64,000 bases of DNA from a virus: the IMG/VR virus record IMGVR_UViG_3300045988_177331; one strand, written 5' to 3'. The notes below the pieces were generated by a model that saw only the letters and a list, made by a program, of their open reading frames with translations, did not search any database and was not told the origin of the DNA. Of the stretch, positions 7,024-60,780 are shown piece after piece. Made by a program: the position numbers and the translations under genes. Each line of letters starts with the position of its first letter. Position 1 is the first letter of the stretch.

Positions 7024-7052
7024 CATTAAATAATAATTAAAATAAAAAGGAT

Positions 7053-7616
7053 ATGGAACTAAACCTAAAAGAATCATATAATTTACTCAAAACTCTAATT
7101 AAAGAACACTGGGTAATATATGATTGCCCAGGTGGGTTAGAGTTAATAACTAATGTTCATCTTAAAAATAACAATCTTAGCTTTACAACTAAATCAAAAC
7201 TTATAGTATATCCAGGAAATAGGGTATATATATTAAATACCAAGGATATACCATTAAGACTTTTCAGTAATGTATCATCTAAATCACTTGATTTTAATAT
7301 AGTTACCATAGATGTTAGTGATATTACAAAATATAAATATTTTGGTATCATAAAACTTAGTGAACCCATAGATATAAGTTCTGATATAAAAAAATTACCA
7401 GAAACAATATTTATAGAAGAGGGTATAGTAGAAGAACAATATCTTAAATATACTCTAATGGTAGATGTAATAGAAGAGAATATTGGAAAGAAAGAGTATA
7501 GAAAGTATTATATTGTTAAATATATAGACCACAACTTTAATTTACGTTATAGTAATAAATATAAACCAGAAGACCTAAGAAGATTAACATTCATATCACC
7601 ATTAAAAATCAAATAA
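7053..7616 (+). CDS. hypothetical protein
   Basis: 187 aa, directly after the promoter copy. Confidence 0.6.
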   Translation: MELNLKESYNLLKTLIKEHWVIYDCPGGLELITNVHLKNNNLSFTTKSKLIVYPGNRVYILNTKDIPLRLFSNVSSKSLDFNIVTIDVSDITKYKYFGIIKLSEPIDISSDIKKLPETIFIEEGIVEEQYLKYTLMVDVIEENIGKKEYRKYYIVKYIDHNFNLRYSNKYKPEDLRRLTFISPLKIK

Positions 7617-8589: not shown

Positions 8590-8618
8590 CATTAAATAAT
8601 AATTAAAATAAAAAGGAT

Positions 8619-9029
8619 ATGGAAACAACAGAACAAAAAATTAACTTGCAACTAAACATTGATGGTCACAAATTCTTTGAAACCAATCAATTATTTGATG
8701 ATGACCAAACCTATTCAAATTTGATACAAGGGTTTATGGATGACCTTGATTATAAATTGGAAAACATGAGGGATTCAGAAGATGAACCAGTAGATGATGA
8801 AATTTATAGTAAGGTTGTTTCATACAAAAAACCAAAATTACAAATATCAATTAATATTGATATTCCAGAACAAGAAGCTAATAGTATCATATCTGATATA
8901 CGATTTACCTATGATATAAATACTTTGGTAAAAGAAATATATGATATGCTAAATAAATCATCTCTACATATCCAGGACATAAATAAAGTAATAGATATTG
9001 TCAGGTCAAAATTCTACAATAAATTCTAA
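8619..9029 (+). CDS. hypothetical acidic protein
   Basis: 136 aa, D/E-rich (…DSEDEPVDDE…). Confidence 0.6.
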   Translation: METTEQKINLQLNIDGHKFFETNQLFDDDQTYSNLIQGFMDDLDYKLENMRDSEDEPVDDEIYSKVVSYKKPKLQISINIDIPEQEANSIISDIRFTYDINTLVKEIYDMLNKSSLHIQDINKVIDIVRSKFYNKF

Positions 9030-10314: not shown

Positions 10315-10322
10315 TATATTTG
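10315..10322 (+). promoter_or_regulatory. -7 box (TATATTTG CATT) promoter candidate
   Basis: TATATTTGCATTA lies 23 nt upstream of ATG 10345. No clean -33 TTTG. Confidence 0.5.
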
Positions 10323-10713: not shown

Positions 10714-11146
10714 AACTCTAAGAGAACAAATAAAAGGGAACTTTGATGAGGATAATATAATAGTTATATTGGATAATTTAATCTCTTTAACATGTGAGGA
10801 ACACCCAATTCCAGGCACCAACAATAGGGTATTCATAATACAGCCTTACCTAATTGATAGCTTAGAAAAAATAGGTAAACAATTAAATATATATGAACAT
10901 TTCCATAGAGTCCAAATATATCTAGACATATTAATTCAAGTACAATGGATAAAGATGTCACTAAACCTAAAATGCTATTTCATAAGGCAATTCATAGAGC
11001 AAAAGCTACTAGAATTAAATGAACACATAACCAGATATGAAATAATCACTGGAAAACCACTTACAAAGGAATATATAAGGTTCTTCAATGAACCCAAAAA
11101 ACAATATGAACTAACCATCAAAAACTATCTACAATGGAAGATTTAA
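10697..11146 (+). CDS. hypothetical protein
   Basis: 149 aa. Codons begin to shift towards C-ending forms. Confidence 0.55.
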   Translation: MEEIYKTLREQIKGNFDEDNIIVILDNLISLTCEEHPIPGTNNRVFIIQPYLIDSLEKIGKQLNIYEHFHRVQIYLDILIQVQWIKMSLNLKCYFIRQFIEQKLLELNEHITRYEIITGKPLTKEYIRFFNEPKKQYELTIKNYLQWKI

Positions 11147-11610
11147 ACTTATTATCAGAAGAACTATTAGAACAAATCTTTATATATCTAAAAGATATAA
11201 ACTGGGAAGAAGACCAAATAGATAATATATTAGGTCAAATATCAGATATAGAGGAAGAACTAGAACTAGAAGACAATCTAATCCTATTACCCAACTTCCC
11301 CTATATAAATACATATCTAGAAGACTTTAAATACTTAATCATATATGAATCACCTAAATATATTCTTCTACAAGATATACCAAATCAATTATACGACTAT
11401 CTAGAACAAATAGACCTAATCCCATTCCAAGGATACTCAACCACCTTCCAAGAACTAGAATACAATTACAACTACCACATAAGGTACAGAACCCAGAGAC
11501 TAAAAATACAGAACCAAATAGAACAAGAATCCCAACAACTAATCAAGGACTTAATCCTATCCAACCAAATAAATAATGTAACCCCAACCCAAATCAAAAT
11601 CCAATTCTAA
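11134..11610 (+). CDS. hypothetical strongly acidic protein
   Basis: 158 aa with a large excess of D/E over K/R in the first ~110 residues (…IEEELELEDN…). C-ending codons. Confidence 0.6.
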   Translation: MEDLNLLSEELLEQIFIYLKDINWEEDQIDNILGQISDIEEELELEDNLILLPNFPYINTYLEDFKYLIIYESPKYILLQDIPNQLYDYLEQIDLIPFQGYSTTFQELEYNYNYHIRYRTQRLKIQNQIEQESQQLIKDLILSNQINNVTPTQIKIQF

Positions 11611-11617
11611 ATAAGTA

Positions 11618-11653
11618 TAGGGAACTCCCAAAACACAAAAAGGAAGTTCCCTA
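11618..11653 (+). terminator. hairpin, terminator candidate
   Basis: TAGGGAACT (11618-11626) / AGTTCCCTA (11645-11653), 18-nt loop, weak T tract. Confidence 0.4.
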
Positions 11654-12083
11654 TTATAATACTAAATCCCAATAACCCACGTACAAAAGGATTACAAAAT
11701 ACCACCAACCCCAAACATAAAAAAACCAAATAATAATATAAAGAACCAACCCATATAAATAAAAGGGTAATATATAAATAACAATATAATAATATAAAAA
11801 ACAAAATACCCTTAAATCCCAATCCCTTTTATTTACACCCCCCTCCTCTTTTTTTATTCCTTTTCTCTATTCAGGATTTTTAATAAACTGAACAAAAAAG
11901 CATAAAAACTATATCAAAACATATAGTCTATCAGTTTAGGCCGGGCCCTTTTTGGGTGTTTTAGGCAGTTCGAGAAGGTACTGTTTACCCCATGTTTTTG
12001 AAGCTTTTTGACTTTTAGGGCCCCCCTACCCTTTAAAAAAAACTCTTTAAAAACACAGCGTTTTGGCTCACTCACAAATCCGA

Positions 12084-12560
12084 AAAATTGCCCAAAAAGG
12101 CAATCCTAGACCCAAATTTCGGTACCCAAAAGGCAATTTTTAGGTACCTAAAAGGCAATCCCAGAGGCAATTTTTAGGCAATTTAGGTACCTAAAATAGG
12201 CCCAAATTTAATAAATTTCGGTACCTAAAAGGCAATTTTTTGGGCCTAAAAGGCCCTCGGATTTATAAAAAATAGGCAATTTTTAGGCCCAAAATTGAGG
12301 GATTTTTATAAAAATAGGTACCTAAAATGGTCTAGGATTTAATAAAAATTGCCTAAAATTTGAATCCTGAGGGCAATTTTTGGGTAAAATTTTAGGGATT
12401 TTAGGCAATTTTTAGGCTCGGATTTAATAAAAAAGGCCCTTCTAGGTACCCAAAAAGGCAAAATTTTGGGTAATTTTAGGGCCTAAATTTAATAAATTAG
12501 GGTATTCAGGTACCTATTTTAGGTAAAATTTTAATAAAATTAGGGCCCAAAAGTACTTAG
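12084..12560. repeat. ORF-free array of helically phased short iterons (GGCAAT(T5), GGTACC(Y)AAAA, AGGCCC, GGATTTAATAAAAA)
   Basis: GGCAAT starts at 12099, 12132, 12154, 12166, 12177, 12231, 12275, 12372 and 12404, with inverted copies at 12087 and 12348. GGTACC starts at 12121, 12143, 12186, 12220, 12317, 12445 and 12509. Confidence 0.9.
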
Positions 12561-12796
12561 GATTTAAAATTCCCATCAACAATGTGTAAAGGATTTAAGG
12601 CCCTTGGGGTTATTTTTCCTAAAATATCTTAGTAATTTACAAGTATAGAGCTAAGAGTTAATATTAAAAGTAAAAAATAAACTCTAGAAGGTATATTAAA
12701 ATTAAAAGCATGTAGACTATATAGAAAGAAGATAGATATTGATATGTTATTGAGATGACATCAATTTAAGCTTAAATTTAAGGCCCCGAATTTTTA

Positions 12797-12828
12797 TTTG
12801 CATATTATATAATAATATATTATATTTG
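12797..12828 (+). promoter_or_regulatory. Bacteroidota-type promoter, early promoter family copy
   Basis: TTTG (12797-12800), 20 nt, TATATTTG (12821-12828) + CATTG. Upstream CCCCGAATTTTTA is shared with the copy at 2281. Confidence 0.7.
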
Positions 12829-12882
12829 CATTGCAATTAAATGCAATAAATATATTATTAACAACACTAAAACATTAACAAC

Positions 12883-13248
12883 ATGATTACAATCAAAAGT
12901 CATTTTGCATTCTCAGGAATCAATATTCCAACATGCATTACTTGTTCAATCAACTCTTATTACAAAGATGAACAATTCATTCAGGAGATAGATTTTCCAA
13001 CTACACCAATCACAGAACCTCTGGGACAAAATTACCTTAAATCAATAATTAATAACAATTTAAAAACACTAGACGATAACCTAACGGAATTACGAAAATA
13101 CCCAAATGATTCAGAACTTGCATCAGAAACAGTAGAACTATTTACTGCAATAAAACAAATAAATAAACATTTATTACCTGATAACCAAATATTTTACCTG
13201 GATTCTTATAATCCAACAATACAGAACCTTATAAATAACTTAAAATAA
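12883..13248 (+). CDS. hypothetical protein
   Basis: 121 aa, one of only two ORFs in 11.6-14.9 kb. Confidence 0.5.
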   Translation: MITIKSHFAFSGINIPTCITCSINSYYKDEQFIQEIDFPTTPITEPLGQNYLKSIINNNLKTLDDNLTELRKYPNDSELASETVELFTAIKQINKHLLPDNQIFYLDSYNPTIQNLINNLK

Positions 13249-13357
13249 TAACCTTTTAAAAACTTAACATTATGAATGCTCTAGAATTCAATTATTATAT
13301 TACTTATCACAATATTTAGACTAAGTTTCCATAATAATAACATAATCCTGAATGACT

Positions 13358-13387
13358 GGGAGACCTAAAAAGTCTCCCTTTCTTTTT
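13358..13387 (+). terminator. rho-independent terminator
   Basis: GGGAGAC (13358-13364) / GTCTCCC (13372-13378) followed by TTTCTTTTT. Confidence 0.65.
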
Positions 13388-13600
13388 GTGAATCAGAAAA
13401 ATCCCTCAACAAAGGCCCAAACCGAAAAAGGCCTTTACCTTATGACAATTATTGTAATCCTGATTTTAGGGATTACCCAATAAATTACTTCCTACGCCCT
13501 ATAACACATCCTGACCCAATATTCAGGAACTCAATCCTACACTTACCCACTGGGAGCAAAATTATTATATAATATATGATTGGAATAAAAATATAATTAT

Positions 13601-13608
13601 TATATTTG
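13601..13608 (+). promoter_or_regulatory. -7 box (TATATTTG CATTG) promoter candidate
   Basis: Lies 33 nt upstream of ATG 13641. Only ATTG is near the -33 position. Confidence 0.5.
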
Positions 13609-13640
13609 CATTGTATTATTAACAACTAAAATTTATTTTT

Positions 13641-14198
13641 ATGGAAACAAAAAATTATTTAGAGAGAATGCAAGAATTAAATGCAATCGCAACAAATTTA
13701 TTTATGGGACCCAACAGACCCCAATACAAACTTGCCATAATTTTAACCATTGACTATGCTGGAGCTTATGGGCTCTCATTACCTGGTAACCTAAACATTA
13801 TTAATAACGAATACTTCGAAATAACGGGAGACCCCGATAACGAAGGTTACTTTGCTCAAATAACCTCTTTACCCTTCAAAGACCAGGTAAACCTAAAACA
13901 CCAAATCGCTAACATAATAACCGATAACCTAAATTACCTAAATAACTGGTTAAACTCCAATCCTGACGATGGGGACTATTTCGACTATATACCAAGCTTA
14001 ATCGACCAAATGCTCCAATTAATAAACTTAGGCTTCAAAACCTTGGACAACTTTAAAAACGAATACGACTACATTTACGAAAAACTCCAAACACAAATTA
14101 ATAAATATAACGAAATGGACCCCGAAAACGGTATTAACCACATTAACCTAAATACCTTCACCTTAACCGAAGGTTACATGATACATATGCACCTATAA
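13641..14198 (+). CDS. hypothetical acidic protein with atypical codon usage
   Basis: 185 aa. Uses AAC/GAC/TAC/TTC/ACC codons and carries 18 CpG in 558 bp (hand count), unlike most of the window. Confidence 0.55.
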   Translation: METKNYLERMQELNAIATNLFMGPNRPQYKLAIILTIDYAGAYGLSLPGNLNIINNEYFEITGDPDNEGYFAQITSLPFKDQVNLKHQIANIITDNLNYLNNWLNSNPDDGDYFDYIPSLIDQMLQLINLGFKTLDNFKNEYDYIYEKLQTQINKYNEMDPENGINHINLNTFTLTEGYMIHMHL

Positions 14199-14302
14199 AA
14201 AAACCTAAACCCAATTAGGGGCCCTCAACAATGGGTCCCTTTTATTTTCGCCTTAAAGGGACCACCTACGCCCTTTAAGCAAAATTGGAAAATTTTATCA
14301 AT

Positions 14303-14347
14303 CGCTTGAATCCTTATATCGCTTGAAAATAACCACATACGCTTGAA
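14303..14347. repeat. three direct copies of CGCTTGAA(A)
   Basis: Copies at 14303-14310, 14320-14327 and 14340-14347, with spacing of 17 and 20 nt, in non-coding DNA. Confidence 0.85.
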
Positions 14348-14727
14348 ACTACTTACCTTTGATTATTCTTTTACTATCAAAGAAACAAAGCAATATATAA
14401 ATATCATTCTAGAGCCTCAAAGAATTTAAACATATTTACTCTAATGGCCATAATTCTATTATTTCTAAGAAATATTACTTCCTACCTGATTTACTACATA
14501 CCCAATTCTAAATATATAACCTTAAATATTACCAACAACGTATTTCCTAAAACTATACATACCTAATCAGATAATTAATATATTGCTAACAACGCATGTG
14601 CACCTTTCAGGCATACCAACAATGGTTCCCATCAACAAGGGCCTAATCTTACTAACGCCTTCAGACCCCCGTGGCAAATTTGTAAAAAATTGTAAAAAGA
14701 AATAAAAATAAAAATTATTTATTTTCA

Positions 14728-14785
14728 TTCTAAATAATATTATTTATATTGATTCTAAATTATTTTATTTAGAATTTTTCTAAAT
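14728..14785. promoter_or_regulatory. operator-like half-site cluster TTCTAAAT, including the palindrome TTCTAAAT-N6-ATTTAGAA
   Basis: TTCTAAAT at 14728, 14753 and 14778; inverted ATTTAGAA at 14767-14774. Immediately upstream of the promoter at 14818-14849. Confidence 0.6.
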
Positions 14786-14817
14786 AAAAATATTTTATAT
14801 TTTTTAACTTCAAAAGT

Positions 14818-14849
14818 ATTGACAAACGGATAAAAATATATTATCTTTG
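14818..14849 (+). promoter_or_regulatory. promoter of the three-gene cassette
   Basis: ATTG(ACA) at 14818-14821, 20 nt, TATCTTTG (14842-14849), which matches TAnnTTTG. ATG at 14929. Confidence 0.55.
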
Positions 14850-14928
14850 TTGTGTAATCGAAAGGGAAATACTTCCTAATTCATTACACATTATTATATT
14901 ATTGTTTAACTATCTAATTTTTTTAATT

Positions 14929-15288
14929 ATGGAAACAAAGAATTTTATCGATGAATTGTTAACTAATGACGTATTTGTTAAAAATTCAAATGGGAAAAAA
15001 TCCTCAATTTATAAGAGGGAATTATTTAACGGAATGTTAGACGATGACAAAAAAAAATTGCGTCGAAAATTGCGTAAAACTTTACAAAACAAATTTTTAG
15101 CCACATTTTTAACAATTCGTAAAAATGAAACTGAATTGAAAAAACTATCTAAAATTTGGAAAGAGTATGCAAACAAAGTATATAATAATATAGAGGTTGT
15201 TTGCGAATCAAATACAGACATTGAGACACAAAAACTAATTAAACAATTTTTGGAATCAATGAAAAATTGTGAAGCAAAAACAAAATAA
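14929..15288 (+). CDS. hypothetical protein (cassette gene 1)
   Basis: The track ORF starts at TTG 14902; ATG 14929 (METKNF…) is preferred. Arg is encoded by CGT/CGA, unlike the AGA/AGG used elsewhere. Confidence 0.55.
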   Translation: METKNFIDELLTNDVFVKNSNGKKSSIYKRELFNGMLDDDKKKLRRKLRKTLQNKFLATFLTIRKNETELKKLSKIWKEYANKVYNNIEVVCESNTDIETQKLIKQFLESMKNCEAKTK

Positions 15289-15342
15289 ATTTCTAATTGA
15301 GTAGGGGATAAACTCCCCTACTCCAAAAATCAAAAAAAAATT

Positions 15343-15660
15343 ATGAAAAGGGAAAATAAACGTTATATTAACTTTGTTAGAAAGGAAATACAAAACGAGT
15401 TAGATATTTTTCAAAGTTTTTTTTCAACTCCAATTTTTGAAAAAAAAGTCGTATATAAAGACGGGGATAAGATTTATATTTGCTTTCGAGACAATGAAAA
15501 GTTTTTAGAAAAATTTAATCAAAATTTTTACAAAGACTTAAAAAGAAAAATTCTTATTTCGATTCGTTCTAAACTAATTCGTGATAAAAAATTTAAGTTA
15601 AAACGTTTAGTTAATTTTGAAAAACAAAATCTAACTGCAATCATTTACGAAATTCTTTAA
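15343..15660 (+). CDS. hypothetical basic protein (cassette gene 2)
   Basis: 105 aa, A9 leader before the ATG, CpG-rich codons. Confidence 0.55.
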   Translation: MKRENKRYINFVRKEIQNELDIFQSFFSTPIFEKKVVYKDGDKIYICFRDNEKFLEKFNQNFYKDLKRKILISIRSKLIRDKKFKLKRLVNFEKQNLTAIIYEIL

Positions 15661-15671
15661 TACTTACAATT

Positions 15672-15917
15672 ATGAATACAAACGATAAACAAAGATTAAA
15701 TTTAATTTTCAAATTTGTAGAAACCTTTCAAAATCAAATTAGATTGTTTGATTTTGATGTAAATTGCAATCAAAATGAACAAATTTGCGGAGTAATTCGA
15801 TTAAATGAAAATTCAAATTTGGAAGAAATGGAACAATTTCTAATTGAAAATAAATGCAATTCGATTTTTGATTATTACGAAGTAGATAAAGATAGTTTAA
15901 TAATTGAAATGGAATAA
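15672..15917 (+). CDS. hypothetical acidic protein (cassette gene 3)
   Basis: 81 aa, followed by a strong terminator. Confidence 0.55.
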   Translation: MNTNDKQRLNLIFKFVETFQNQIRLFDFDVNCNQNEQICGVIRLNENSNLEEMEQFLIENKCNSIFDYYEVDKDSLIIEME

Positions 15918-16319: not shown

Positions 16320-16565
16320 CTAAAACTCTAGAAAAGAATATAAAGAATAAATCCTTATGCCATATAAAATAACCATAACTGAATTCCATAAATCCTTATT
16401 GAATACTTTATTCAAATGGTCAAATACAATTGAAATTAGGTTTAATATTAAAACCATGGAAAGGATTACTACCAATATAATGGATTTCTCATCACCAGCA
16501 AAATATTGCATTAGAAAAAATCCAAAAGAAAATCCAAAGAGTAGATTTATAATATCCTTTGTCAT
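16320..16565 (-). CDS. hypothetical small membrane protein
   Basis: 81 aa with 2-3 hydrophobic helices. Last gene of the minus-strand operon; 4-nt overlap with the upstream gene. Confidence 0.55.
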   Translation of the reverse strand: MTKDIINLLFGFSFGFFLMQYFAGDEKSIILVVILSMVLILNLISIVFDHLNKVFNKDLWNSVMVILYGIRIYSLYSFLEF

Positions 16566-16861
16566 CCTGTTACTTTTATATCAAATAAACCTTCTATTTC
16601 CTCTATGGTAATTCCAAGGTATTCCAATTCCAATCTAAGGATATCAAATTCCTCATCTGTAGTTTCAGATATACTGGTTTCCGATAAATGCCTGAATGTA
16701 ATATAATTATTGAAGGATAGGATATTCCTATTATTATCTACACTTAATAGGACCTTGAAATTAATTGCCATATCAGATGATATAGAATTTATAATTCCAA
16801 TAAATTTACTAAATTTAGCTGTACCTTTGATGGTAACTAAGGTTCCTTTTTCTAATTCCAT
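16562..16861 (-). CDS. hypothetical protein
   Basis: 99 aa, overlapping stop/start with both neighbours. Confidence 0.55.
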   Translation of the reverse strand: MELEKGTLVTIKGTAKFSKFIGIINSISSDMAINFKVLLSVDNNRNILSFNNYITFRHLSETSISETTDEEFDILRLELEYLGITIEEIEGLFDIKVTG

Positions 16862-17082
16862 AATTTATAAACTTTTTTAAAAAATCCACTATCAATTAAT
16901 TCAACTATAATAATTACTATCAATGATGCTGGACTAAGAACTACAAGGAACAACCCCCCTGTTATATGTTTATCTGCCAAACATCCCTTATTATTAAATC
17001 CACAATTAGTACAAGTAATAGACTTTATACATTGATATAAATTATCCTGATAATTAAATATTTCACCTATTTTTAGTTCCAT
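16852..17082 (-). CDS. hypothetical Cys-containing membrane protein
   Basis: 76 aa. CTNCGFNNKGC motif followed by a hydrophobic helix. Confidence 0.5.
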   Translation of the reverse strand: MELKIGEIFNYQDNLYQCIKSITCTNCGFNNKGCLADKHITGGLFLVVLSPASLIVIIIVELIDSGFFKKVYKLWN

Positions 17083-17402
17083 AATTCCAATTGTTTCCTT
17101 TCTCTTTTTTCCTGTAATTCATATACATTTTCATATAAGTCTCTAATCTTCTTAAAGGTAATTTTAATTTTTCTAGAACCTTCTAGTTTTACACTTACTC
17201 TTTCCATATAACCTCTAGTTTCAAAATTACTTCTATACCCCAAAACTGTTGTATGTGAATAACCAAGGTCATTTATTAAATCCATAAAATCAAATTTTTC
17301 ACCTACTGGTATTTGATTAAATCTTTTCCTAAGGATATCAAATTTACTCATAATATTAATTGTTTTATATTGAATATGTCTACTATATCTCAATTTGGTC
17401 AT
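17073..17402 (-). CDS. hypothetical protein, possible winged-helix DNA-binding protein
   Basis: 109 aa. FMDLINDLGYSHTTVLGYRSNFETRGYMER resembles a wHTH. The ATG at 17402 abuts the U tract of the hairpin at 17409-17433, so the internal ATG at 17351 is an alternative start. Confidence 0.45.
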   Translation of the reverse strand: MTKLRYSRHIQYKTINIMSKFDILRKRFNQIPVGEKFDFMDLINDLGYSHTTVLGYRSNFETRGYMERVSVKLEGSRKIKITFKKIRDLYENVYELQEKRERKQLELWN

Positions 17403-17433
17403 AAAAAAATTCCTCTACTTGGAATAGAGGAAT
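17402..17433 (-). terminator. minus-strand hairpin plus T7 tract (intra-operon terminator/attenuator candidate)
   Basis: Arms at 17409-17417 and 17425-17433. The A7 on the + strand gives a T7 after the stem on the minus strand. Confidence 0.55.
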
Positions 17434-17468
17434 TGAATAGTAAAAGAAGGAAGAACCAAATACTTCTT

Positions 17469-17945
17469 TTATCTTAAAATTTCAATATTAATACATTCTA
17501 ATCCCCAAGATTCTTCCGTACTGGGGTCAAAATTACCAGTTGTAGAGATTTGTAAACCACCAAACATAAATTTTTTACCAGTAGAACTTGGAGCAGTAGA
17601 AGTAAGGTATACAGTAGTAAAATTCCTTCGTAAAGCATTAGCATTACTTGGGTCAAAATCAATACTATGTAAATCAACATACTTATTGTCACTTACCATG
17701 ATATTACAATATCTTTCTGAAGTAACAATATTCTGAATAACAGAACATGCAAATAGACGTACCAATGGTGTATTATCACTTCTAGTAACATATATATCAA
17801 ATGCAATATCACTGGGGGTTAATGATTTAGCTGATATACTATTGAATACACCAGTCAAATAAAATGCCATTTCTTTAGTAATAGCAGAAAATTTTACTTC
17901 AAACCCATCTAATTTATCTTTGGGCATAATTGGGATTATTATCAT
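17469..17945 (-). CDS. hypothetical protein (158 aa, beta-rich composition)
   Basis: Longest ORF of the minus-strand block. No motif recognised. Confidence 0.6.
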   Translation of the reverse strand: MIIIPIMPKDKLDGFEVKFSAITKEMAFYLTGVFNSISAKSLTPSDIAFDIYVTRSDNTPLVRLFACSVIQNIVTSERYCNIMVSDNKYVDLHSIDFDPSNANALRRNFTTVYLTSTAPSSTGKKFMFGGLQISTTGNFDPSTEESWGLECINIEILR

Positions 17946-17999
17946 ACTGTTCTATTTTTTAGGTTATTTTTTGGTTCTTCATATCAAAATAGTATATAC

Positions 18000-18034
18000 A
18001 AAAAAACCACCAATATTTTCTCAAACCTTGGTGG
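18000..18034 (-). terminator. minus-strand rho-independent terminator candidate
   Basis: CCACCAA (18007-18013) / TTGGTGG (18028-18034). The A7 at 18000-18006 on the + strand gives a T7 after the stem on the minus strand. Confidence 0.55.
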
Positions 18035-18076
18035 CAAACAGTGAAACATAAATTCAAGAACGAGATAAACATAAAC

Positions 18077-18301
18077 TCATAGATGAGTTTCTTTACTATG
18101 GTTTTTAGAAAGTATTATTACTGTATATAATAGTAAACTAAGAATTAATACTGGGGATATCATAAAAGTAATTACCATTATAAAAAAATGCCTTATATTA
18201 TTCTTTGTACCTTTTACACCTGATTTCCTAACAGTATAATCTATTGCTATGGTTAATATTAACCCAATAAAATATATAATAATTAAAATTTTCATTGCCA
18301 T
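18077..18301 (-). CDS. small multi-pass membrane protein (holin-like architecture)
   Basis: 74 aa, 2-3 hydrophobic helices and a charged C-terminus (KNHSKETHL). Confidence 0.5.
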   Translation of the reverse strand: MAMKILIIIYFIGLILTIAIDYTVRKSGVKGTKNNIRHFFIMVITFMISPVLILSLLLYTVIILSKNHSKETHL

Positions 18302-18305
18302 AACC

Positions 18306-18500
18306 CTATACTGTTGCTAGAAATGAAAGGAATAATCCACCAATAATTAAAGCAATGATTACCAATGGTACAAAAAAGGTTCTAAAATTAGAACATTCTT
18401 CATCTAAACCTTTAAATAAAGCCCAAATACTAAAAAAGCTATCTGTTGTTACTTTGTCAAATTTCCTTAGGATTAAAAAATCCAACATCTTTCTAATCAT
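18306..18500 (-). CDS. small C-terminally anchored membrane protein
   Basis: 64 aa, ends with FFVPLVIIALIIGGLFLSFLATV. Confidence 0.5.
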   Translation of the reverse strand: MIRKMLDFLILRKFDKVTTDSFFSIWALFKGLDEECSNFRTFFVPLVIIALIIGGLFLSFLATV

Positions 18501-18817
18501 AAATATTTTTCCTCCATTTTTCTAAGTTTATTGTACAATTTAACCACTGATTCATTAGGTAATTTCCCTAATCCTTCATTAATTTTACCCAAAATTCTGG
18601 GTATTCTTTCCATGGATAATAAATAATTATATTTATCCTCATCAAATAGTTCAACCTTGAACTTAAAAGTAACAATACTGATAATATTTAGGTTATTATC
18701 TATGGTCATCCCATTATTAAGTTTGTATTTATTACCTTTTAATACAGAATCCACCAAAGCTTTTTCATAATGTGCTGGTCCAGTTACCAATAAAGCATCT
18801 TTTTCTTTAAGTTTCAT
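18497..18817 (-). CDS. hypothetical protein, first gene of the minus-strand operon
   Basis: 106 aa, ATGA-type overlap with the next gene. Confidence 0.55.
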   Translation of the reverse strand: MKLKEKDALLVTGPAHYEKALVDSVLKGNKYKLNNGMTIDNNLNIISIVTFKFKVELFDEDKYNYLLSMERIPRILGKINEGLGKLPNESVVKLYNKLRKMEEKYL

Positions 18818-18909: not shown

Positions 18910-19920
18910 ATGGGTAAATTAAGAGTACTTGGAGTATGTGGAGCTCAAGGAGCTTTATTATTCCCTTTTAAAAAGTATTTAATCAGTAATATTGAACCAA
19001 GAGCAGTATTTCATACAAAAAATGAAGAACAATGGAAATTAAATTTTGGTGAAATACCTTTCAAAAGAGACCTTGAATCATTTAAAGGCCAAGTAGATAT
19101 TATAATTGGTTCCCCTTCTTGTGGTCATTCTAGTGTTTTTAGTTATTCAAGGAAGAAAACCCTTGGTAAACCAAAAGAAGATAAAACTTTGAATCTATTT
19201 TTAACCTCTTTGAGCATGTTTAAACCAAAAATATTCCTAATGGAAAACCTCCCAAAACTTTTTGATTTAATTCCAAGAGAGGAATGGGAAGCAAAATTGC
19301 AAAATTATCACCTAATTGTCCATTGCCATTCAGTATTTGATTTTGGTAATTCACAAAAATCACGAAAAAGATTAATCCTAATTGGTATTAGAAAGGATTC
19401 TAATATAAAAGTATCAAACTTTGAAAATATTTTTCCAGTATCAACTCCAATGTTAGTATCAGAAATTGAAAAACTGATAAGAAAGGACATTAATTTCAAA
19501 GAAAATGATGATAAAAAATTAGCCATGTACCATTATTCTGATAAATCAAAGAAAACCCTAACAGTAAAGGAAGTAAAAAATCTTTGGTTGAGTGAATTTA
19601 AAAAAGAATATAAATGGCCAATGAAAAATACCAAAATGAAAACTCTTCCAGGAGTGTATAGAAATAGAAAAAATAGTTATCCATTAACTGTAAGACCATC
19701 AAATAGGCAATTTAATCCTGATGGGGATATCATGGGCCTAGAAGAATATAGGATTATTATGGGATTCCCAAAAAGGTTCAAGGTATATATGGATACTGAA
19801 AATTTAAATTATTGGCTCAATAAAGGAAGAAATACATTAACAAAAGGCTCAGTTTATGAAGTTGGGGTATGGTTTAAAAAATGCCTGAAAAAACAATTCA
19901 GGAATATGGAAACCCCCTAA
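18910..19920 (+). CDS. DNA (cytosine-5)-methyltransferase-like protein
   Basis: The C5-MTase motifs occur in order: I-like VLGVCGAQGALLF; IV-like GSPSCGHSS (Cys retained, PCQ changed to SCG); VI ENLP; VIII QKSRKRLILIG; IX-like EEYRIIMGFPKRF; X-like TKGSVYEVG. Confidence 0.7.
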   Translation: MGKLRVLGVCGAQGALLFPFKKYLISNIEPRAVFHTKNEEQWKLNFGEIPFKRDLESFKGQVDIIIGSPSCGHSSVFSYSRKKTLGKPKEDKTLNLFLTSLSMFKPKIFLMENLPKLFDLIPREEWEAKLQNYHLIVHCHSVFDFGNSQKSRKRLILIGIRKDSNIKVSNFENIFPVSTPMLVSEIEKLIRKDINFKENDDKKLAMYHYSDKSKKTLTVKEVKNLWLSEFKKEYKWPMKNTKMKTLPGVYRNRKNSYPLTVRPSNRQFNPDGDIMGLEEYRIIMGFPKRFKVYMDTENLNYWLNKGRNTLTKGSVYEVGVWFKKCLKKQFRNMETP

Positions 19921-20032
19921 CGCGTACGTATGCGCTTATTATTAATTAAATAAATATATAGATAGATATTATATATCTATCTATATATTACGTATATGCG
20001 CTATTATAAGGTTACGTGTACACGTGTACGTA
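19920..20032. repeat. dense cluster of CpG-containing palindromes and inverted repeats
   Basis: ACGCGT 19920, CGTACG 19923, TACGTA 19925/19989/20027, TTAATTAA 19942. 16-bp IR AATATATAGATAGATA/TATCTATCTATATATT at 19953-19989. Overlapping 12-bp palindromes ACGTGTACACGT (20014) and GTACACGTGTAC (20018). Confidence 0.9.
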
Positions 20033-20148
20033 ATATATTTATACCCTCTAAAAGGGTAAATAAATATATTTTACTCTTTTTAGAGGAGGGAATAAATCAA
20101 AAAGAATAAGGGGGAACTATTGGTTATAAATCCCAAAAATTTTATGTT

Positions 20149-20816: not shown

Positions 20817-23327
20817 ATGGCAAGGATATTAAAAGAAGATAAAAGCTTAAACCAGGAACAGCTAAGAATTTTATCTAGAGTATCAAAAGATGTATTTTTA
20901 TTCTCTACATTTGTTTGGGTAGTTAACCCAGTACTGGGTATGGTAAAATTTAATTTATACCCATACCAAAAATCAGTTCTTTATCAATTCCTAAAACATA
21001 GGTTCAATATAATCCTAAAATTCAGACAAGCTGGAATTACAGAATTGATTGCTATGTACTGTTTATGGTTAGCTATGTATCACCCAAACAAAAAAATAAA
21101 CATCATATCAATCAAGGATACTATAGCAAAGAAGGTACTTAAGAAAATTAAGTTCATGTATAAGAATTTACCTTGGTACCTTCAAACACCAATCATAAAT
21201 GGTAGGGTGGGGGAATTTGGTAGTACAACTACCATGGAATTCTCAAATGGTTCAATTATAGAATCAATTCCTACTTCTGAACAAGCTGGTCGTTCAGAAT
21301 CTCTATCTTTACTTGTTATAGATGAAGCTGCTGCAGTAAGATGGGCTAACCAAATTTGGGCAGCAGCTTTCCCTACCCTTTCTACTGGTGGTTCAGCAAT
21401 CATTAATAGCTGTGTAACCGGTGATACTGAAATAGTTACTAAGAACGGGCTGCTTAGGATAGATACAGTTTGTCCTAAAGAGTTTGGAGTAGCAGATATC
21501 TCTGCTCTTAATTTAGAGGTATTAACTCACAACCTACAGTGGAAAAAGGTTAAAGCTTCAGTTAACAAGGGTAAACTACCTACCTGGGAAATAAAAACCA
21601 CTAAAGGTACAATACTCAAATGTACTCCTGCTCATAAGCTTCTTACTACTTATGGTTGGAAACCTGTTAAGGAGATAGTAGAAAAGGATCTGAACGTCAT
21701 TGAATATGACTTAGGCTTAGATTCTTTAAGAAAACTGCCAGTTACTAAACCCCCTAAGAAGGAAGAGTTAAAACAAATCAAAGGTTATCCCAACTATTAC
21801 ATAAGTAATCTAGGAAAGGTTTACATCAAGAAAGGTGATCAACTGATCATTAAAGAAGGTAGACCTAATAAACAGGGTTATTTACGTATAAAGCTATGGA
21901 ATCACAACAAAAATAAGAACTTCTCTATTCATAGGCTGGTAGTAGAACACTTTATAGGTAAAATACCAAACGGTTATGTAGTTGATCACCTCAATGGTAA
22001 TAAAAGTAATAACTATGTAACTAACCTAGAAATAGTTTCTGTAGCCGAGAATACCAGAAGAGCTTCTGTTTCTAACTACTCTATGTCTATTGGCTCTAGG
22101 ATCCTTAAAGAAGGAACTAGAATACCTCTAGAAGTAGTTGGAATAGTTAAGGAAATATATCCAAAAGTTAAACATAAGAAATACAGTGGTTCTAATGGTA
22201 ATGGTTATCAGAAAGCTATAGTTGATGAAGTAAGGAAAAGAACTGGTTTTGAACTTGATACTAAGCAAATTTACAAAATTATAGCTGGTACCAGGAATCA
22301 AGGTTTAACCTTATCTAAGGTAGAAGTTCTTAGGAAGTTTGAGGCTGAAATTTTTGATATTTCAGTTGAGGATGACCAATCTTATTTCGTAAACCCTAGT
22401 CTCCCATCACATAACACCCCTTTGGGAGTTGGTGGATTTTATCATTCAAGTTGGGTAGATGCTATATCTGGTGGTAATCCAATGAATCCAATCAGATTAT
22501 ATTGGCAAATGCACCCAGATAGAGATGATAAATGGTACCAAGAAATGGCATCTGCACTTGGACCAAGAAGAACTGCCCAAGAAATAGATGGTGACTTTTT
22601 ATCTTCAGGTAATACAGTATTTGATATGTCTGATATCAAAGGTATTGAAGAAATGTTATCTGAATATCCTCCAATATTAACAAAAATGGGTGGTCAATAT
22701 AGAGAATTCAATGAAGTAGACCCAGATAAGGAATATTTCATTGGTGCAGACTGTTCAACTGGTAGAGCAACTGACTACTCTTCTTTCACGTGTATGGATA
22801 AATTTGGGGAAGAACAGGTTATATACAAAGGAAGGTTACCTCTAGATAGATATGCAAAGTTACTTGGTGATACTGGAATGAAATTTAATAATGCACTTCT
22901 AGCACCAGAAACAAATGATATAGGGGCAGCTGTTACTGCAATGCTTCAAGCTGAAGGTTATCCAAATCTTTATTACTATACTAAAATTCTTAAAAAGAAG
23001 GGTAAAAGTAGACCAGAAGAAGAAAAAATTCCTGGTTGGTTAACAACCACTAAAAATAGAACAGTTATAATAGAGGGTCTGGAAGAGGATATTAGAAAAG
23101 AAAATATAATCATAAAGGACCCATTCTTTATACAAGAAGCCTATACCTTTATATATGATGCAACAGGAAGACCAGTTGCAAGAGGTAAACATAGAACCTC
23201 ATCTAGTTCAGCTTCTGATATAGATATGGATGACCAAACTTATTCAGATGATGATATATTTGGTAAAGCTATAACCAACCATATAAGGAAGTCAAATCAA
23301 TACAATGGATATGTATTACCCCAATAA
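20817..23327 (+). CDS. terL: terminase large subunit, interrupted by an intein
   Basis: Deviant Walker A KFRQAGIT, Walker B LSLLVIDEAA, coupling motif split as …GGSAIINS / TPLGVGGFYH, nuclease-type IGADCSTGRATDYSSF. Sits upstream of the portal. Confidence 0.9.
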   Translation: MARILKEDKSLNQEQLRILSRVSKDVFLFSTFVWVVNPVLGMVKFNLYPYQKSVLYQFLKHRFNIILKFRQAGITELIAMYCLWLAMYHPNKKINIISIKDTIAKKVLKKIKFMYKNLPWYLQTPIINGRVGEFGSTTTMEFSNGSIIESIPTSEQAGRSESLSLLVIDEAAAVRWANQIWAAAFPTLSTGGSAIINSCVTGDTEIVTKNGLLRIDTVCPKEFGVADISALNLEVLTHNLQWKKVKASVNKGKLPTWEIKTTKGTILKCTPAHKLLTTYGWKPVKEIVEKDLNVIEYDLGLDSLRKLPVTKPPKKEELKQIKGYPNYYISNLGKVYIKKGDQLIIKEGRPNKQGYLRIKLWNHNKNKNFSIHRLVVEHFIGKIPNGYVVDHLNGNKSNNYVTNLEIVSVAENTRRASVSNYSMSIGSRILKEGTRIPLEVVGIVKEIYPKVKHKKYSGSNGNGYQKAIVDEVRKRTGFELDTKQIYKIIAGTRNQGLTLSKVEVLRKFEAEIFDISVEDDQSYFVNPSLPSHNTPLGVGGFYHSSWVDAISGGNPMNPIRLYWQMHPDRDDKWYQEMASALGPRRTAQEIDGDFLSSGNTVFDMSDIKGIEEMLSEYPPILTKMGGQYREFNEVDPDKEYFIGADCSTGRATDYSSFTCMDKFGEEQVIYKGRLPLDRYAKLLGDTGMKFNNALLAPETNDIGAAVTAMLQAEGYPNLYYYTKILKKKGKSRPEEEKIPGWLTTTKNRTVIIEGLEEDIRKENIIIKDPFFIQEAYTFIYDATGRPVARGKHRTSSSSASDIDMDDQTYSDDDIFGKAITNHIRKSNQYNGYVLPQ
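21411..22415 (+). mobile_element. intein (335 aa) carrying an HNH homing-endonuclease module, in frame inside terL
   Basis: Begins CVTGDTEIVT (block A). TxxH block LKCTPAHKLLT. NUMOD4-like YPNYYISNLGKVY plus HNH-type HRLVVEHF…VDHLNGNKSNNYVTNLE. Ends …VNPSLPSHN followed by Thr+1. Confidence 0.85.
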
Positions 23328-57116: not shown

Positions 57117-57527
57117 ATGGCAAAGAAACAAAAACAAAAGGAATTAATAAAACTTGAAGATACAGATATATTGAAACCAATTGATATTTCTCAAATAGGT
57201 TCAAATGGGGACCCATGCTTTGGAAAAGAATATAACCTATCAACCAAGGAATGCAAGATGTGTGGGGATTCAGAATTATGCTGCATAAAATTTGCAGAGT
57301 TAATTGGAAAAGATAGAAAACAATTGGAAAAAGAGAATGAATTTAAGGACTTAGAAAATCTAGTAGATTTAAAAGCAGTGTCAAAAACTATTAGATATTT
57401 GAAAAGGAAAGATGAACCCAAAAAAATAATCCTTGATAAGATTCAAGCAAAATATGAATTGAGCAGGGAAGAAGCTAGAACAATTTATAAATCAGTAATA
57501 AACAAACAAAATGGAAAAAAACAATGA
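57117..57527 (+). CDS. hypothetical Cys-containing protein
   Basis: 136 aa. C..K…CKMCGDSELCC cluster. Confidence 0.55.
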   Translation: MAKKQKQKELIKLEDTDILKPIDISQIGSNGDPCFGKEYNLSTKECKMCGDSELCCIKFAELIGKDRKQLEKENEFKDLENLVDLKAVSKTIRYLKRKDEPKKIILDKIQAKYELSREEARTIYKSVINKQNGKKQ

Positions 57528-58035
57528 ATTAATTTTCACAAGGGTAAGAGATGTTCAATTACCCAAAAGAGCAAATCAACATGATGCAGGAATAGACTTC
57601 TTCTGTCCAGTTCTAGATTCTGAATTAATCCAAAGAATCAATGAGATTAACAATAGTAAGAATGTTATAACAACTCCTGATTTTATTTTGGTAGCTCCTG
57701 GTGCAGATATAACAATCCCATCAGGGGTAAAAGTTTGGATAATGAATAAAGAATCTGCTTTAGTTGCAGCAAATAAATCTGGATTAGCAACAAAGTTTAG
57801 TATTCAATTCACTGCTCAAGTAATAGATGCAGATTACACTGGGGAAATTCATATTGGAATAAGGAATCATGGAAAAGACTTCTTTATGATTAAACCTGGT
57901 GCAAAGTTAATACAATTCCTGCATTTACCAATCATATTATCAGATATCATAGAGGTAGGTAATGATGGGTATAATGATATTGTTGATGGGAAATCAGATA
58001 GGGGAGAAGGAGGATTTGGTTCAACTGGATTTTGA
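57511..58035 (+). CDS. dut: trimeric-type dUTPase (dUTP/dCTP pyrophosphatase fold)
   Basis: All five dUTPase motifs are present: AGIDF, IPSGVKV, QVIDADYTGEI, KPGAKLIQFL, RGEGGFGSTG. Confidence 0.85.
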   Translation: MEKNNELIFTRVRDVQLPKRANQHDAGIDFFCPVLDSELIQRINEINNSKNVITTPDFILVAPGADITIPSGVKVWIMNKESALVAANKSGLATKFSIQFTAQVIDADYTGEIHIGIRNHGKDFFMIKPGAKLIQFLHLPIILSDIIEVGNDGYNDIVDGKSDRGEGGFGSTGF

Positions 58036-58111
58036 TTATGGAAAATACAAATATACAACAAGAGTTAAATGATATTTATATCCATGATTGGTATATTAAA
58101 GACTGAGTGAT

Positions 58112-58996
58112 ATGGATTCAAGAGATATAAAAGAAGAACCAAGTATTCCAAAAGATAATAAGTATCTGGAATCAATATATGAAATGCAAAAACAACTACT
58201 AGATAGTTATATAAGCATTGAAGGGTTACCAAAATACCCATTAAATATAAACACAAAAACCAATCAATTAATCCTAAAAGATTTTACTTCAAGGGTAATT
58301 GAGGAACTTGCAGAAGCTTATGAGAGTTTATTATTAGTGGAGGAATTAACAATAACAAAACAAAATTGGTTCACTATATCATCAACTTCAATTAATTCTT
58401 TTGTTGAATGTATGAATCATTTGCAAAATGCAAGTGAAGAAATGGCAGATGCTTTACATTTCTTCATTGAGTTGTTAATTTACACTAATATACAACCAGA
58501 AGATATTAATTCATACATTGAAAGTAAATTACCAAAGAATAAGAGACAAAACTTCTCAAATACACTTGAATATGGGATGGCATTGGGTAAACAATGGTTA
58601 TCAAATATGAATCAAATCCCAGATGTGAAGAGGAAGAATTTGGTAAACTTAATTCATAAGTATGAACAAGTAAAGGTTGATTTTGATATACCAGAATATA
58701 ATATTAAACTTTTACATTGTGGTGAAGACTACAATTATGAACTTTATAATTCATACAAAAGTTATCTTTGGGATATAACCTATGAACTGAATATATCAAG
58801 GAATTTCCTTAAAAATAAACCATGGAAGCAATCTCAAATGATGACCAATGAATCAGCTTATCAAGAGGAGATAGTAAAGTCATTTATATTATTCCTTGGT
58901 ACATTGAATATAATGGGAGTAAATGGAAGTAATCTGTATTATATTTACTTCAAGAAGAATAAGATAAACCAATTCAGAATAAAATCTAAGTATTAA
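58112..58996 (+). CDS. all-alpha NTP pyrophosphohydrolase, dimeric dUTPase/dCTPase-like
   Basis: EELAEAYES (E..E), EEMADALHFFIELL (E..D.lHF), KNKPWKQ (WK) and C-terminal KKNKINQFRIKSKY (K..N..R…Y), in the order typical of dimeric dUTPase/MazG-type enzymes. Confidence 0.6.
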   Translation: MDSRDIKEEPSIPKDNKYLESIYEMQKQLLDSYISIEGLPKYPLNINTKTNQLILKDFTSRVIEELAEAYESLLLVEELTITKQNWFTISSTSINSFVECMNHLQNASEEMADALHFFIELLIYTNIQPEDINSYIESKLPKNKRQNFSNTLEYGMALGKQWLSNMNQIPDVKRKNLVNLIHKYEQVKVDFDIPEYNIKLLHCGEDYNYELYNSYKSYLWDITYELNISRNFLKNKPWKQSQMMTNESAYQEEIVKSFILFLGTLNIMGVNGSNLYYIYFKKNKINQFRIKSKY

Positions 58997-60730: not shown

Positions 60731-60780
60731 TAGTATTGAAATCTATTCTTATTAAACCAAACTTATTAAACTAAATAAAT

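Follow-up and report, generated by a model that had tools for sequence, protein, structure and literature searches.

Iteron origins, among them those of lambda, P1, R6K, RK2-type plasmids and lactococcal and streptococcal phages, combine phased repeats with a bend, AT-rich flanks and a promoter. In phage phi29, the DNA forms a right-handed superhelix round the small protein p6, whose sites are set partly by bendability; the complex activates the initiation of replication and represses an early promoter. The genome of phi29 is linear and protein-primed, and p6 binds close to its ends every 24 bp, with little sequence specificity. The parC site of plasmid R1, a type II centromere-operator, consists of 10 nearly identical iterons in 159 bp, 11-bp direct repeats placed one per helical turn, which are curved and flank a promoter; each iteron is bound by one small dimer in a cooperative fashion, and the site acts both as an operator and as an assembly site (PMC2241845). 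The parH site of TP228 is built from degenerate boxes with AT-rich spacers, is coated cooperatively and tolerates the deletion or rearrangement of subsites (PMC3130281). Repeat region 3 of T5 is an untranslated region of >1 kb that contains direct and inverted repeats and palindromes; it is situated among small early genes with strong promoters, and its sequence is kept more closely than that of the ORFs around it (10.1101/866236).

The DNA analysed here, a stretch of 64 kb to which we refer as the window, comes from an AT-rich, lytic-type myovirus of a common human-gut lineage, the genome of which is ~70% AT. Its early-gene region contains a non-coding gap of 1.27 kb, and this gap is host to an array of ~45 units of GGnnnn followed by W5, which recur every 10.8 nt on average. 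The array is probably a variant on the known phased-repeat sites, for which we infer a function from the sequence. The features of the gap and of the genes that follow it are these:

11611..11938, + strand: left non-coding flank, A+C-rich on the + strand (sequence, TRF, composition)
11939..12083, + strand: degenerate left margin of the array, with weaker periodicity and units such as GGGCCCTTTTT, GGGTGTTTTA and GGGCCCCCC
12084..12570, + strand: core array
12087..12104, no strand: inverted pair at the left array edge, ATTGCC-N6-GGCAAT
12138..12153, no strand: perfect 16-nt palindrome TTTTAGGTACCTAAAA (inverted repeat I23, 100% complementary)
12182-12196: second copy of the palindrome, 15 nt, TTTAGGTACCTAAAA
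12343..12414, no strand: perfect 17-nt inverted repeat TAAAAATTGCCTAAAAT ... ATTTTAGGCAATTTTTA, arms 38 nt apart (I12)
12571..12764, + strand: unique non-repetitive block from array to promoter, 97-98% identical in close relatives
12765..12796, + strand: two promoter-proximal array-type units, TTTAAGCTTAAA and TTTAAGGCCCC
12797..12828, + strand: early promoter TTTG-N20-TAtaTTTG (pattern scan)
12883..13248, + strand: first operon gene after the array, encoding a 121-aa acidic protein
14929..15285, + strand: gene for a basic 119-aa helical protein (tblastn synteny, alignment A2)

A sliding Fourier scan of the whole window placed the array at ~12040-12570, with degenerate units from 11939 and values above the 98th percentile from ~11900, and the same scan found no second array of this kind in the 64 kb. 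Laid out on their GG starts, the units are mostly 9-13 nt long, and the words of the core are AGGCAAT(TTTT), (TT)AGGTACC(TAAAA), AGGCCC/GGGCC(T/C), GGGAT/GGATTTAATAAAAA and GGGTAA. The core is mostly polar, with 30 AGG on the + strand vs 14 CCT, and it contains the repeat families D1-D8, with 31-nt families of five copies, as well as a 22-nt composite unit detected by TRF. GGCAAT starts at 12099, 12132, 12154, 12166, 12177, 12231, 12275, 12372 and 12404, so that nine of its 23 copies in the window fall within 0.75% of the window length; GGTACC starts at 12121, 12143, 12186, 12220, 12317, 12445 and 12509 (7 of 34 copies, the remaining 27 being mostly within ORFs). The densities outside the array would give 0.1 GGCAAT and 0.2 GGTACC per 477 nt by chance. 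The word (A/C)GGATTTAATAAAAA occurs at 12334 and 12419, and the 16-nt palindrome at 12138..12153 resembles the kind of site that a dimeric protein would bind. An earlier sequence-only reading had described this stretch as an ORF-free array of phased iterons; all of its motif coordinates were reproduced exactly, including the inverted ATTGCC copies at 12087 and 12348, as were the three instances of GGTACC 11 nt before GGCAAT, and the interleaved AGGCCC words that it mentioned number five. The stretch is also free of ORFs as described, the sole overlapping ORF of at least 40 aa being a 40-aa TTG ORF on the minus strand. The left flank carries a 20-nt A-rich tandem repeat (11720-11808, TRF) and a hairpin with a 7-bp stem (11908-11927). 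The left half of the array has a GC content of 35-41% and the right half one of ~28-35%; the 100-nt blocks with the highest AT content in the gap lie on either side of it, with 21% GC at 11700-11799 and 18-25% at 12600-12899.

The phasing of the units stands out from shuffled sequence. A single sharp Fourier peak at 10.8 nt was obtained for AGG, AA/TT, AAA, TTT, G, C and G+C, and for all seven features its power was reached by none of 300 dinucleotide-preserving shuffles, while the power of the GG periodicity was reached by two of 300. The phase coherence was matched in 29 of 5000 permutations of the order of the GG-to-GG intervals, in which some pairs of short and long intervals represent one unit with an extra GG. 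The helical phasing proposed from the spacing of the motifs therefore holds. As the A/T tracts recur in phase, the naked DNA of the array is predicted to be strongly curved, in approximately two turns of a right-handed coil. Two wedge models gave bends per 10 bp of 18.7 and 14.7 degrees vs medians of 9.3 and 7.8, the highest of any 487-nt segment in both models, and a total predicted bend of ~650-840 degrees with positive torsion; the proposal that the tracts bend the DNA is thus matched by a prediction that makes the array the most curved stretch of the window.

The array words are confined to the array within the 64 kb, as indicated by a word scan, and TTAGGTACCTAA is found nowhere else in the window, while the hexamers GGCAAT and GGTACC recur elsewhere. 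This confinement suggests a single cis site, and dispersed operator sites were rejected on this ground. The possibility of an RNA gene was also rejected, as Rfam gave no match at gathering score in the window, with chance-level matches only at E up to 1, and as the good fold of the array as RNA (z -4.8) is explained by its palindromes. No tRNA or tmRNA was found, and there was no nucleotide match to the array region among GenBank phages.

The array is kept in both close and distant lineages. In close relatives it is 96-98% identical vs 86-96% for the adjacent genes, with 94-96% for the left flank and 94-98% for the whole gap, and it varies in length by -77, +10 and -207 nt, the first of these being a deletion of seven 11-nt units. 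In the divergent relative L013, conservation is lowest in the array (61%) and, among the non-coding parts, highest in the block 12571..12764 (80%), and the 119-aa protein is 93% identical; the low identity of the array fits a loose, partly structural constraint as well as an origin. Distant lineages, with TerL 55-63% and a neighbouring protein 35-47% identical, have arrays of 120-157 nt with a period of 11.0-11.3 nt (~11.1), the power of which was reached by 0-4 of 200 shuffles. TTAGG/TAAGG, GGTACC and GGCC/GGGCC are common to these arrays and the window, and GGCCC, AGGCC, AAGGC, GGTAC and TAAGG/TTAGG are the enriched words. Further periodicity peaks of the distant loci at ~-1.1 to -1.3 kb were discarded, the one inspected (L091) being in coding sequence. 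Peaks of the distant loci also occur at -243.

The sequence-only reading was incomplete in one respect, in that it missed the link of the array to a strong early promoter. Promoters of Bacteroidota have the consensus TTTG at -33 and TAnnTTTG at -7, and the promoter at 12797 is one which we take to be of this type. Judged from promoter type only, the host would belong to the Bacteroidota; a search for the host in isolate genomes matched a single 4.5-kb MAG contig and was uninformative. The promoter is one of five near-identical copies, at 2291, 3522, 6992, 8558 and 12797, of which the last alone is accompanied by an array. The main array lies ~230 nt upstream of it, only two units adjoin it directly, and a GGCC word is placed ~12 nt upstream of its -33 element. 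The intervening unique block is 21-25% GC from 12600, and no RNA fold beyond shuffles was found at 12560-12800 (z +0.58). In the distant lineages, the arrays abut the homologous promoter and end immediately upstream of the -33 element, where the phased tracts are placed as they would be in a curved promoter element; a (TA)n stretch adjoins the conserved core, and the gene downstream differs. The arrangement GGCC-N(8-10)-TTTGCAT is also present in L013, L066, L054, L059, L074, L087 and others.

The 121-aa acidic protein encoded directly after the promoter has no family match and is not conserved in distant lineages. The basic 119-aa protein, characterised by the invariant motif SIY..F..D..KK.LR.KLR, is one of only two small early-region proteins of the window for which every distant lineage examined has a homologue, and of these two it alone is encoded on the array strand and after the array; the homologues lie ~1.0-2.5 kb downstream of the array region in the same orientation. 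This protein is a candidate for the binder of the array. Pfam and PHROG contained no match to it and PDB none of significance, a designed helical bundle scoring best (E 0.0014); its single-sequence AF2 model is of low confidence (pLDDT 55), and its homologues from a large database are all at least 95% identical.

We tentatively favour the explanation that the array is an iteron-type nucleoprotein assembly site, that is, an origin or replication-control element coupled to the early promoter, and we infer the binding, the binder and the origin activity alike. As such, the array would act as a single-copy, cis-acting site for nucleoprotein assembly. Successive units place a short word containing G/C (TTAGG, AGGC, GGTACC, GG(G)CC) on the same helical face, with an A/T tract after each. 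A small sequence-specific protein would coat this pre-bent DNA in a cooperative manner; from the palindromic TTAGGTACCTAA sites one would expect a dimeric binder, and the directional AGGCAATTTTT units suggest that it packs head to tail. The superhelical complex would serve as an iteron-type origin or replication-control region, for which the two AT-richest blocks flanking the array would be the melting regions, and the strong host-type early promoter next to it could serve to activate the origin while itself being under the control of this complex. Such a dual role resembles that of phi29 p6 complexes or of the lambda ori with pR, although the array, in contrast to the p6 sites, has specific words that are conserved across lineages.

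With iteron origins the array shares helically phased direct repeats, a 22-nt composite, a predicted bend, flanks that are AT-rich within a genome of high AT content, a promoter and its presence in single copy; the mostly direct and polar units, the composite and the perfect palindromes speak for an origin. It differs from them in that its units are more numerous, shorter and degenerate, in that DnaA boxes are absent (TTATCCACA with up to one mismatch has no match at 10756-14133) and in that no initiator is adjacent. The location of the array in the early region of a lytic-type genome with DnaB and DnaG-like primase genes of its own is in favour of an origin. The distance of the array from these replication genes (~40 kb), the heterogeneity of its words and a length exceeding that of classical iterons argue against an origin. 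Pfam and PHROG scans of the 30 ORFs at 427-20814 were essentially empty, and a Rep/O/DnaA-type initiator domain is absent from every one of them; as these ORFs are all ORFans, a novel initiator is possible. No Par gene or terS is recognisable near the array, nor is any other gene for a DNA-binding protein next to it. GC skew was rejected as a marker of the origin, since the cumulative curve has its extremes at ~9 kb and ~19 kb, away from the array, and the change of sign within the array is local only. The idea that the C5-methyltransferase gene at 18910-19920 might be connected with the array was dropped, as this enzyme gave no match among solved structures from which its specificity could be inferred. 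The earlier proposal of a phased, bent assembly site, either a replication origin or a packaging region, thus stands as regards the site itself, through its periodicity, curvature, conservation and shared words; its origin half is plausible and its packaging half weaker.

A close rival, albeit one that we hold to be somewhat unlikely, is that the array serves transcription alone, as an operator or an architectural element. In this reading, curved DNA upstream of the 12797 promoter would act as an activator, or repressors would assemble on it cooperatively as in ParR/parC or omega-heptad systems, setting the strength or timing of that promoter, possibly via the 119-aa basic protein. Phased A-tracts upstream of phage early promoters are reportedly activating, according to work on SP82 Alu156. 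The arrays of all distant lineages end at -33 with GGCC at a fixed ~12 nt, two array-type units persist at the window promoter, and every lineage has the basic-protein homologue at a similar place downstream and in the same orientation, all of which is consistent with an operator. The tandem 10-11-bp curved iterons tied to a promoter also have a precedent in R1 parC, where 11-bp curved iterons flank and repress a promoter (PMC2241845). However, the other four near-identical promoters of the genome lack an array, ~45 units (0.5 kb) exceed the need of any known promoter-upstream element, and a unique block of 200 nt separates the main array from the window promoter. The first downstream gene is not conserved, which suggests that the element is autonomous rather than gene-specific, and the basic protein is far more similar between the window and L013 than is the array (93% vs 61%).

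It is unlikely, in our estimation, that the array, together with the corresponding shorter arrays of related gut phages, represents a new class of phage cis-element, a very long, sequence-specified, right-handed superhelical organiser coated by small, basic, helical proteins of a novel family, that of 14929-15285. If true, such an organiser would couple genome entry, anchoring or the start of replication with early transcription, and would be without a homologue among the known Rep, ParR and p6 systems.

A role of the array in packaging, as a terminus or in DNA entry seems improbable; it would be a pac or terminase-assembly site, a T7-like array flanking a terminal repeat or a T5-like injection-stop region. 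CCTAAA-type words recur in it, as they do in the left-end repeats of T7. Several independent contigs of relatives end at 12035, ~12282, ~12396 and ~12485 (window-equivalent positions), and MT121964 starts inside array-like sequence. Contig ends cluster at least as strongly at the repeated promoter at 8600 and at the palindromes at 19969-20131, and since they coincide with every repeat or palindrome, as breaks of de Bruijn assembly do, they were rejected as evidence of a physical terminus; moreover, at least seven contigs read straight across the array, and the 77-80-kb contigs have differing start points, as is usual for circular or permuted assemblies. In being large, untranslated and rich in repeats, in lying among small ORFan early genes that have strong promoters of the host type, and in being conserved better than the flanking ORFs, the array region recalls the T5 iss region (10.1101/866236). 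The T5 region is marked by paired DnaA boxes in long inverted repeats inside a long terminal repeat, and by DNA entry in two steps; the array lacks such DnaA-box pairs and has strict 10.8-nt phasing as its hallmark. That no terS is recognisable was stated correctly in the sequence-only reading, the 221-aa ORF before terL having no family match, and this would leave room for a packaging site. The array is not within or next to a terS-terL operon; it lies 8.3 kb and >10 genes upstream of terL (20817), and a minus-strand block (16562-18817) lies between the two. A palindrome-rich intergenic region directly before the terL operon (19921-20148) is a better-placed candidate for pac.

It is very improbable that the array is a partition centromere, a very long site of the parC, parH or tubC kind serving an episomal or carrier state. 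Its 11-bp phased curved repeats beside a promoter are reminiscent of R1 parC (PMC2241845), its degenerate boxes with AT-rich spacers resemble the deletion-tolerant parH (PMC3130281), whose tolerance matches the natural length variants of the array, and no integrase was detected among the scanned ORFs. Yet parH is ~100 bp and without intrinsic bend, unlike the array, predicted to be the most curved DNA of the window, and where R1 parC is short and near-uniform, the array has ~45 heterogeneous units in ~0.5 kb and lies in the early region of a lytic-type phage. The ORFs at 12883-15917 gave no Pfam or PHROG match, neither to a ribbon-helix-helix ParR nor to an actin-like ParM, and none of them is long enough for ParM; no NTPase of the ParA, ParM or TubZ type was found among the scanned ORFs, with ~13 kb of the genome lying outside the window; the phage has the genes of a lytic-type myovirus, and the plasmid collection contained no match to the array.

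A functionless, minisatellite-like tract arising from slippage of an 11-nt unit is hardly credible, for although the indels of -77, +10 and -207 nt are near whole units, as unequal recombination would give, and conservation in L013 is poor, the array exceeds the neighbouring genes in identity among close relatives, its vocabulary and period persist at the homologous site despite 35-47% identity of the neighbouring protein, its phase coherence exceeds that of permuted intervals and it contains perfect palindromes.

The lineage is very common in human-gut metagenomes, where a single near-identical protein cluster was found on 186 contigs. The 0.5-kb array offers a handle on the origin or control region, and on a DNA-binding protein among the ORFan early proteins, and might find use in Bacteroidota genetics, either as a PER-type decoy or as a replicon part. 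With ~45 units in phase, it would rank with the longest stretches of phased, bent DNA that occur naturally in phages. When the genome is assembled, contigs break off at the array, at the repeated promoters and at the palindromes at ~20 kb.

A phased array of repeats of about 11 nt, at 12084-12570 of an AT-rich (about 30% GC) myovirus, is a real, highly non-random and conserved feature, and is of interest for the abundance of the lineage that carries it and for its unusual length and regularity. The array and the genes around it are arranged as follows, with L066 denoting a locus of a related phage.

11611-12882: non-coding gap around the array, 1.27 kb
14929-15285: basic helical protein of 119 aa, from a 109-119-aa family (L066 5041-5370; 15 other loci)
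19921-20148: palindrome-rich intergenic region with CG-containing palindromes and repeats, directly upstream of a 221-aa ORF and the terL operon
start 20817: terL
start 23337: portal
start 24816: protease
start 26787: major head protein
start 36759: tail sheath
start 40134: tape measure
start 47201: baseplate
start 51946: DnaB-like helicase

Further genes encode a DnaG-like primase, an SNF2-type helicase, two dUTPase-like proteins and one ThyA-like protein. The two dUTPase-like genes and the thymidylate-synthase-like gene adjoin the replication module (57511-61515), a cluster that may reflect pyrimidine modification of the phage's DNA. The small ORFan genes of the first 16 kb gave essentially no family matches. 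The gap opens with a flank rich in A+C, which contains a hairpin and a tandem repeat of 20 nt. The array comes next, then 200 nt of unique AT-rich sequence, two further array-type units, an early promoter (12797-12828) and a 121-aa gene. Between about 9300 and 16000, the coding strand of plus-strand genes and non-coding DNA is rich in A+C (GC skew -0.3 to -0.8), plus-strand genes elsewhere have positive skew, and several of the encoded proteins seem, by eye, strongly acidic or Asn/Gln-rich.

The sequence-only reading described this tract as free of ORFs and built of helically phased iterons, and both its motif coordinates, which we reproduced exactly, and the absence of ORFs were borne out. 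Of the 23 GGCAAT copies in the window, 9 fall within 12099-12404, and of the 34 GGTACC copies 7 fall within 12121-12509, the remaining 27 being mostly intra-ORF. The array also contains two inverted ATTGCC, five AGGCCC and two (A/C)GGATTTAATAAAAA words. The unit consists of GG and four bases followed by a 5-base A/T tract, usually 9-13 nt in all; a 22-nt composite unit (TRF), families of 31-40 nt, perfect palindromes (TTTTAGGTACCTAAAA among them) and an inverted pair of 17 nt were also detected. Fourier analysis of 12084-12570 gave a single sharp peak at 10.8 nt for AGG, AA/TT, AAA, TTT, G, C and G+C, whose power was matched by none of 300 dinucleotide-preserving shuffles (2/300 for GG). In a sliding scan of the 64 kb the array, which spans about 12040-12570 and has weaker units starting near 11939, was the sole region of its type, and the array words recur nowhere else in the window. 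Permuting the order of intervals reached the observed phase coherence in only 29 of 5000 trials, so departures from 11 nt tend to compensate one another, although some pairs of short and long intervals are one unit carrying an extra GG. The array is also the densest cluster of GGCC, GGGCC and GGTACC in the window.

Curvature was predicted with the Bolshoy-Trifonov and De Santis dinucleotide wedge sets, using literature parameter values. Under both models the array, as expected for phased A/T tracts, has the strongest predicted bend of all 487-nt windows, averaging 18.7 and 14.7 degrees per 10 bp where the median window has 9.3 and 7.8, and it also exceeds every shuffle. Since the period of 10.8 nt is longer than the helical repeat of the models (10.3-10.5 bp), the predicted path would be a coil of mostly positive torsion and not a flat circle, with a total bend of 650-840 degrees, or about two right-handed turns.

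The nearest GenBank records are uncultured human-gut phages (portal identity about 61%), and IMG/VR contains many relatives. The lineage is abundant: one near-identical protein cluster was found on 186 contigs, the longest of 77-79 kb. The window resembles Quimby-like phages (PMC8008677) in size, in the DnaB plus DnaG pair and in a presumed Bacteroidota host. Close relatives share the array at 96-98% nucleotide identity, against 86-96% for flanking genes, and three natural length variants occur (-77 nt, or seven units; +10 nt; -207 nt); the array is therefore conserved but elastic. In the related locus L013 it is the least conserved segment (61%), broken up by AT-only inserts, and the unique promoter-adjacent block holds 80% identity. 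AT-only stretches of the form (TATATTATATAATATATA) break up the array region of divergent relatives (L013 3210-3510; L066 3440-3480 and 3620-3660); they have short direct or inverted repeats on their flanks, and may represent unwinding elements or what remains of promoters. In distant lineages (TerL 55-63% identical), the homologous non-coding region runs from array-like words through a (TA)n stretch and a conserved core to a phased array of 120-157 nt and then an early promoter. Promoter-proximal arrays of 16 distinct sequences have a period of 11.0-11.3 nt, with a power reached by 0-4 of 200 shuffles. GGCCC, AGGCC, AAGGC, AGGGC, GGTAC and TTAGG/TAAGG are enriched in the distant arrays as in the window; GGCAAT is restricted to the window's lineage.

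In every lineage the gene for the basic helical protein lies some 1.0-2.5 kb downstream of the array region. The protein has the invariant motif SIY..F..D..KK.LR.KLR...W..Y..VY.N, and searches of Pfam, PHROG and PDB recognised no family or structure for it. Together with a 106-aa minus-strand ORF (18497-18817), it is the only small early-region protein with homologues across the distant lineages. Five near-identical TTTG-N20-TAnnTTTG promoters serve early-region genes (2291, 3522, 6992, 8558, 12797). They are 32 nt long, of the form TTTGCATA...TATATTTGCAT, and three are 100% identical; partial copies lie at 10318, 13604 and, on the minus strand, 51863, and two copies share about 25 nt of identical downstream sequence (7034-7058 = 8600-8624). 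This form is the Bacteroidota consensus, and from promoter type alone the host is presumably a member of the Bacteroidota.

These results support a view of the array as a pre-bent site, present in one copy and sequence-specific, on which proteins would bind cooperatively; in the whole family it accompanies an early promoter. Binding itself, the binder and any activity are putative. The nearest anatomical precedent is R1 parC, with 11-bp iterons, strong curvature, a promoter-flanking position and one dimer bound per iteron (PMC2241845); the elasticity of the array recalls parH (PMC3130281), and as an extensive untranslated stretch of repeats amid early genes it recalls the T5 iss region (10.1101/866236). 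The interpretation in the sequence-only reading, an origin or packaging initiation region, is upheld in part, as a binding platform, with the specific function conjectural. Every phage needs an origin, and AT-rich flanking blocks with an adjacent promoter are a classical origin layout. On these grounds, and because a better packaging candidate lies elsewhere, an iteron-type origin or region of replication control is tentatively our leading reading, with some probability left unassigned among the readings. DnaA boxes were not found in the array, and no Rep, Par, integrase or terS gene was recognisable beside it; cumulative GC skew has its extremes near 9 kb and 19 kb, and the sign change within the array is local only. 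A purely transcriptional operator or architectural array is a close though less likely rival. In its favour, the early promoter accompanies the array across lineages; against it, the first gene downstream varies between them.

A packaging, terminus or entry-related element is unlikely. Relatives' contigs end in or at the array; the duplicated promoter (8600) has as many such ends, and 19969-20131 has more, with six independent contigs terminating there. Assemblers break at repeats and palindromes; as all three sites are of this kind, and no fewer than seven contigs span the array, contig ends give no firm information on termini. The region at 19921-20148 contains ACGTGTACACGT, an AT palindrome (ATATATAGATAGATAT/ATATCTATCTATATAT) and two CGTAT(AT)GCGC motifs, and the distant relative L047 also has a CGTATATGCGC motif at the corresponding place. 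It could be a pac/cos site, or no more than an assembly-breaking palindrome; if such a site adjoins the terminase genes, this region is a better candidate than the array.

A partition centromere is very unlikely, with no Par gene recognisable beside the array. The array is a variant within the class of phased iteron or centromere-like arrays; it showed no nucleotide similarity to any GenBank phage record or to plasmids. That so regular and conserved a repeat is functionless is hardly credible, its length variants notwithstanding. A known RNA was ruled out, the region having no Rfam hit at gathering score and no significant fold in the promoter-side block, and no tRNA or tmRNA was found.

Just before the palindromic region, a C5 cytosine methyltransferase gene (18910-19920) is kept in all related lineages (66-73% identity). 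At residues about 231-533, the product of the terL gene (20817-23327) contains an intein that includes a homing endonuclease (Pfam Intein_splicing, HNH_3 and NUMOD4). In the relative L038 (96% identical) TerL is uninterrupted and about 500 aa long, and the insertion is therefore polymorphic in the population.
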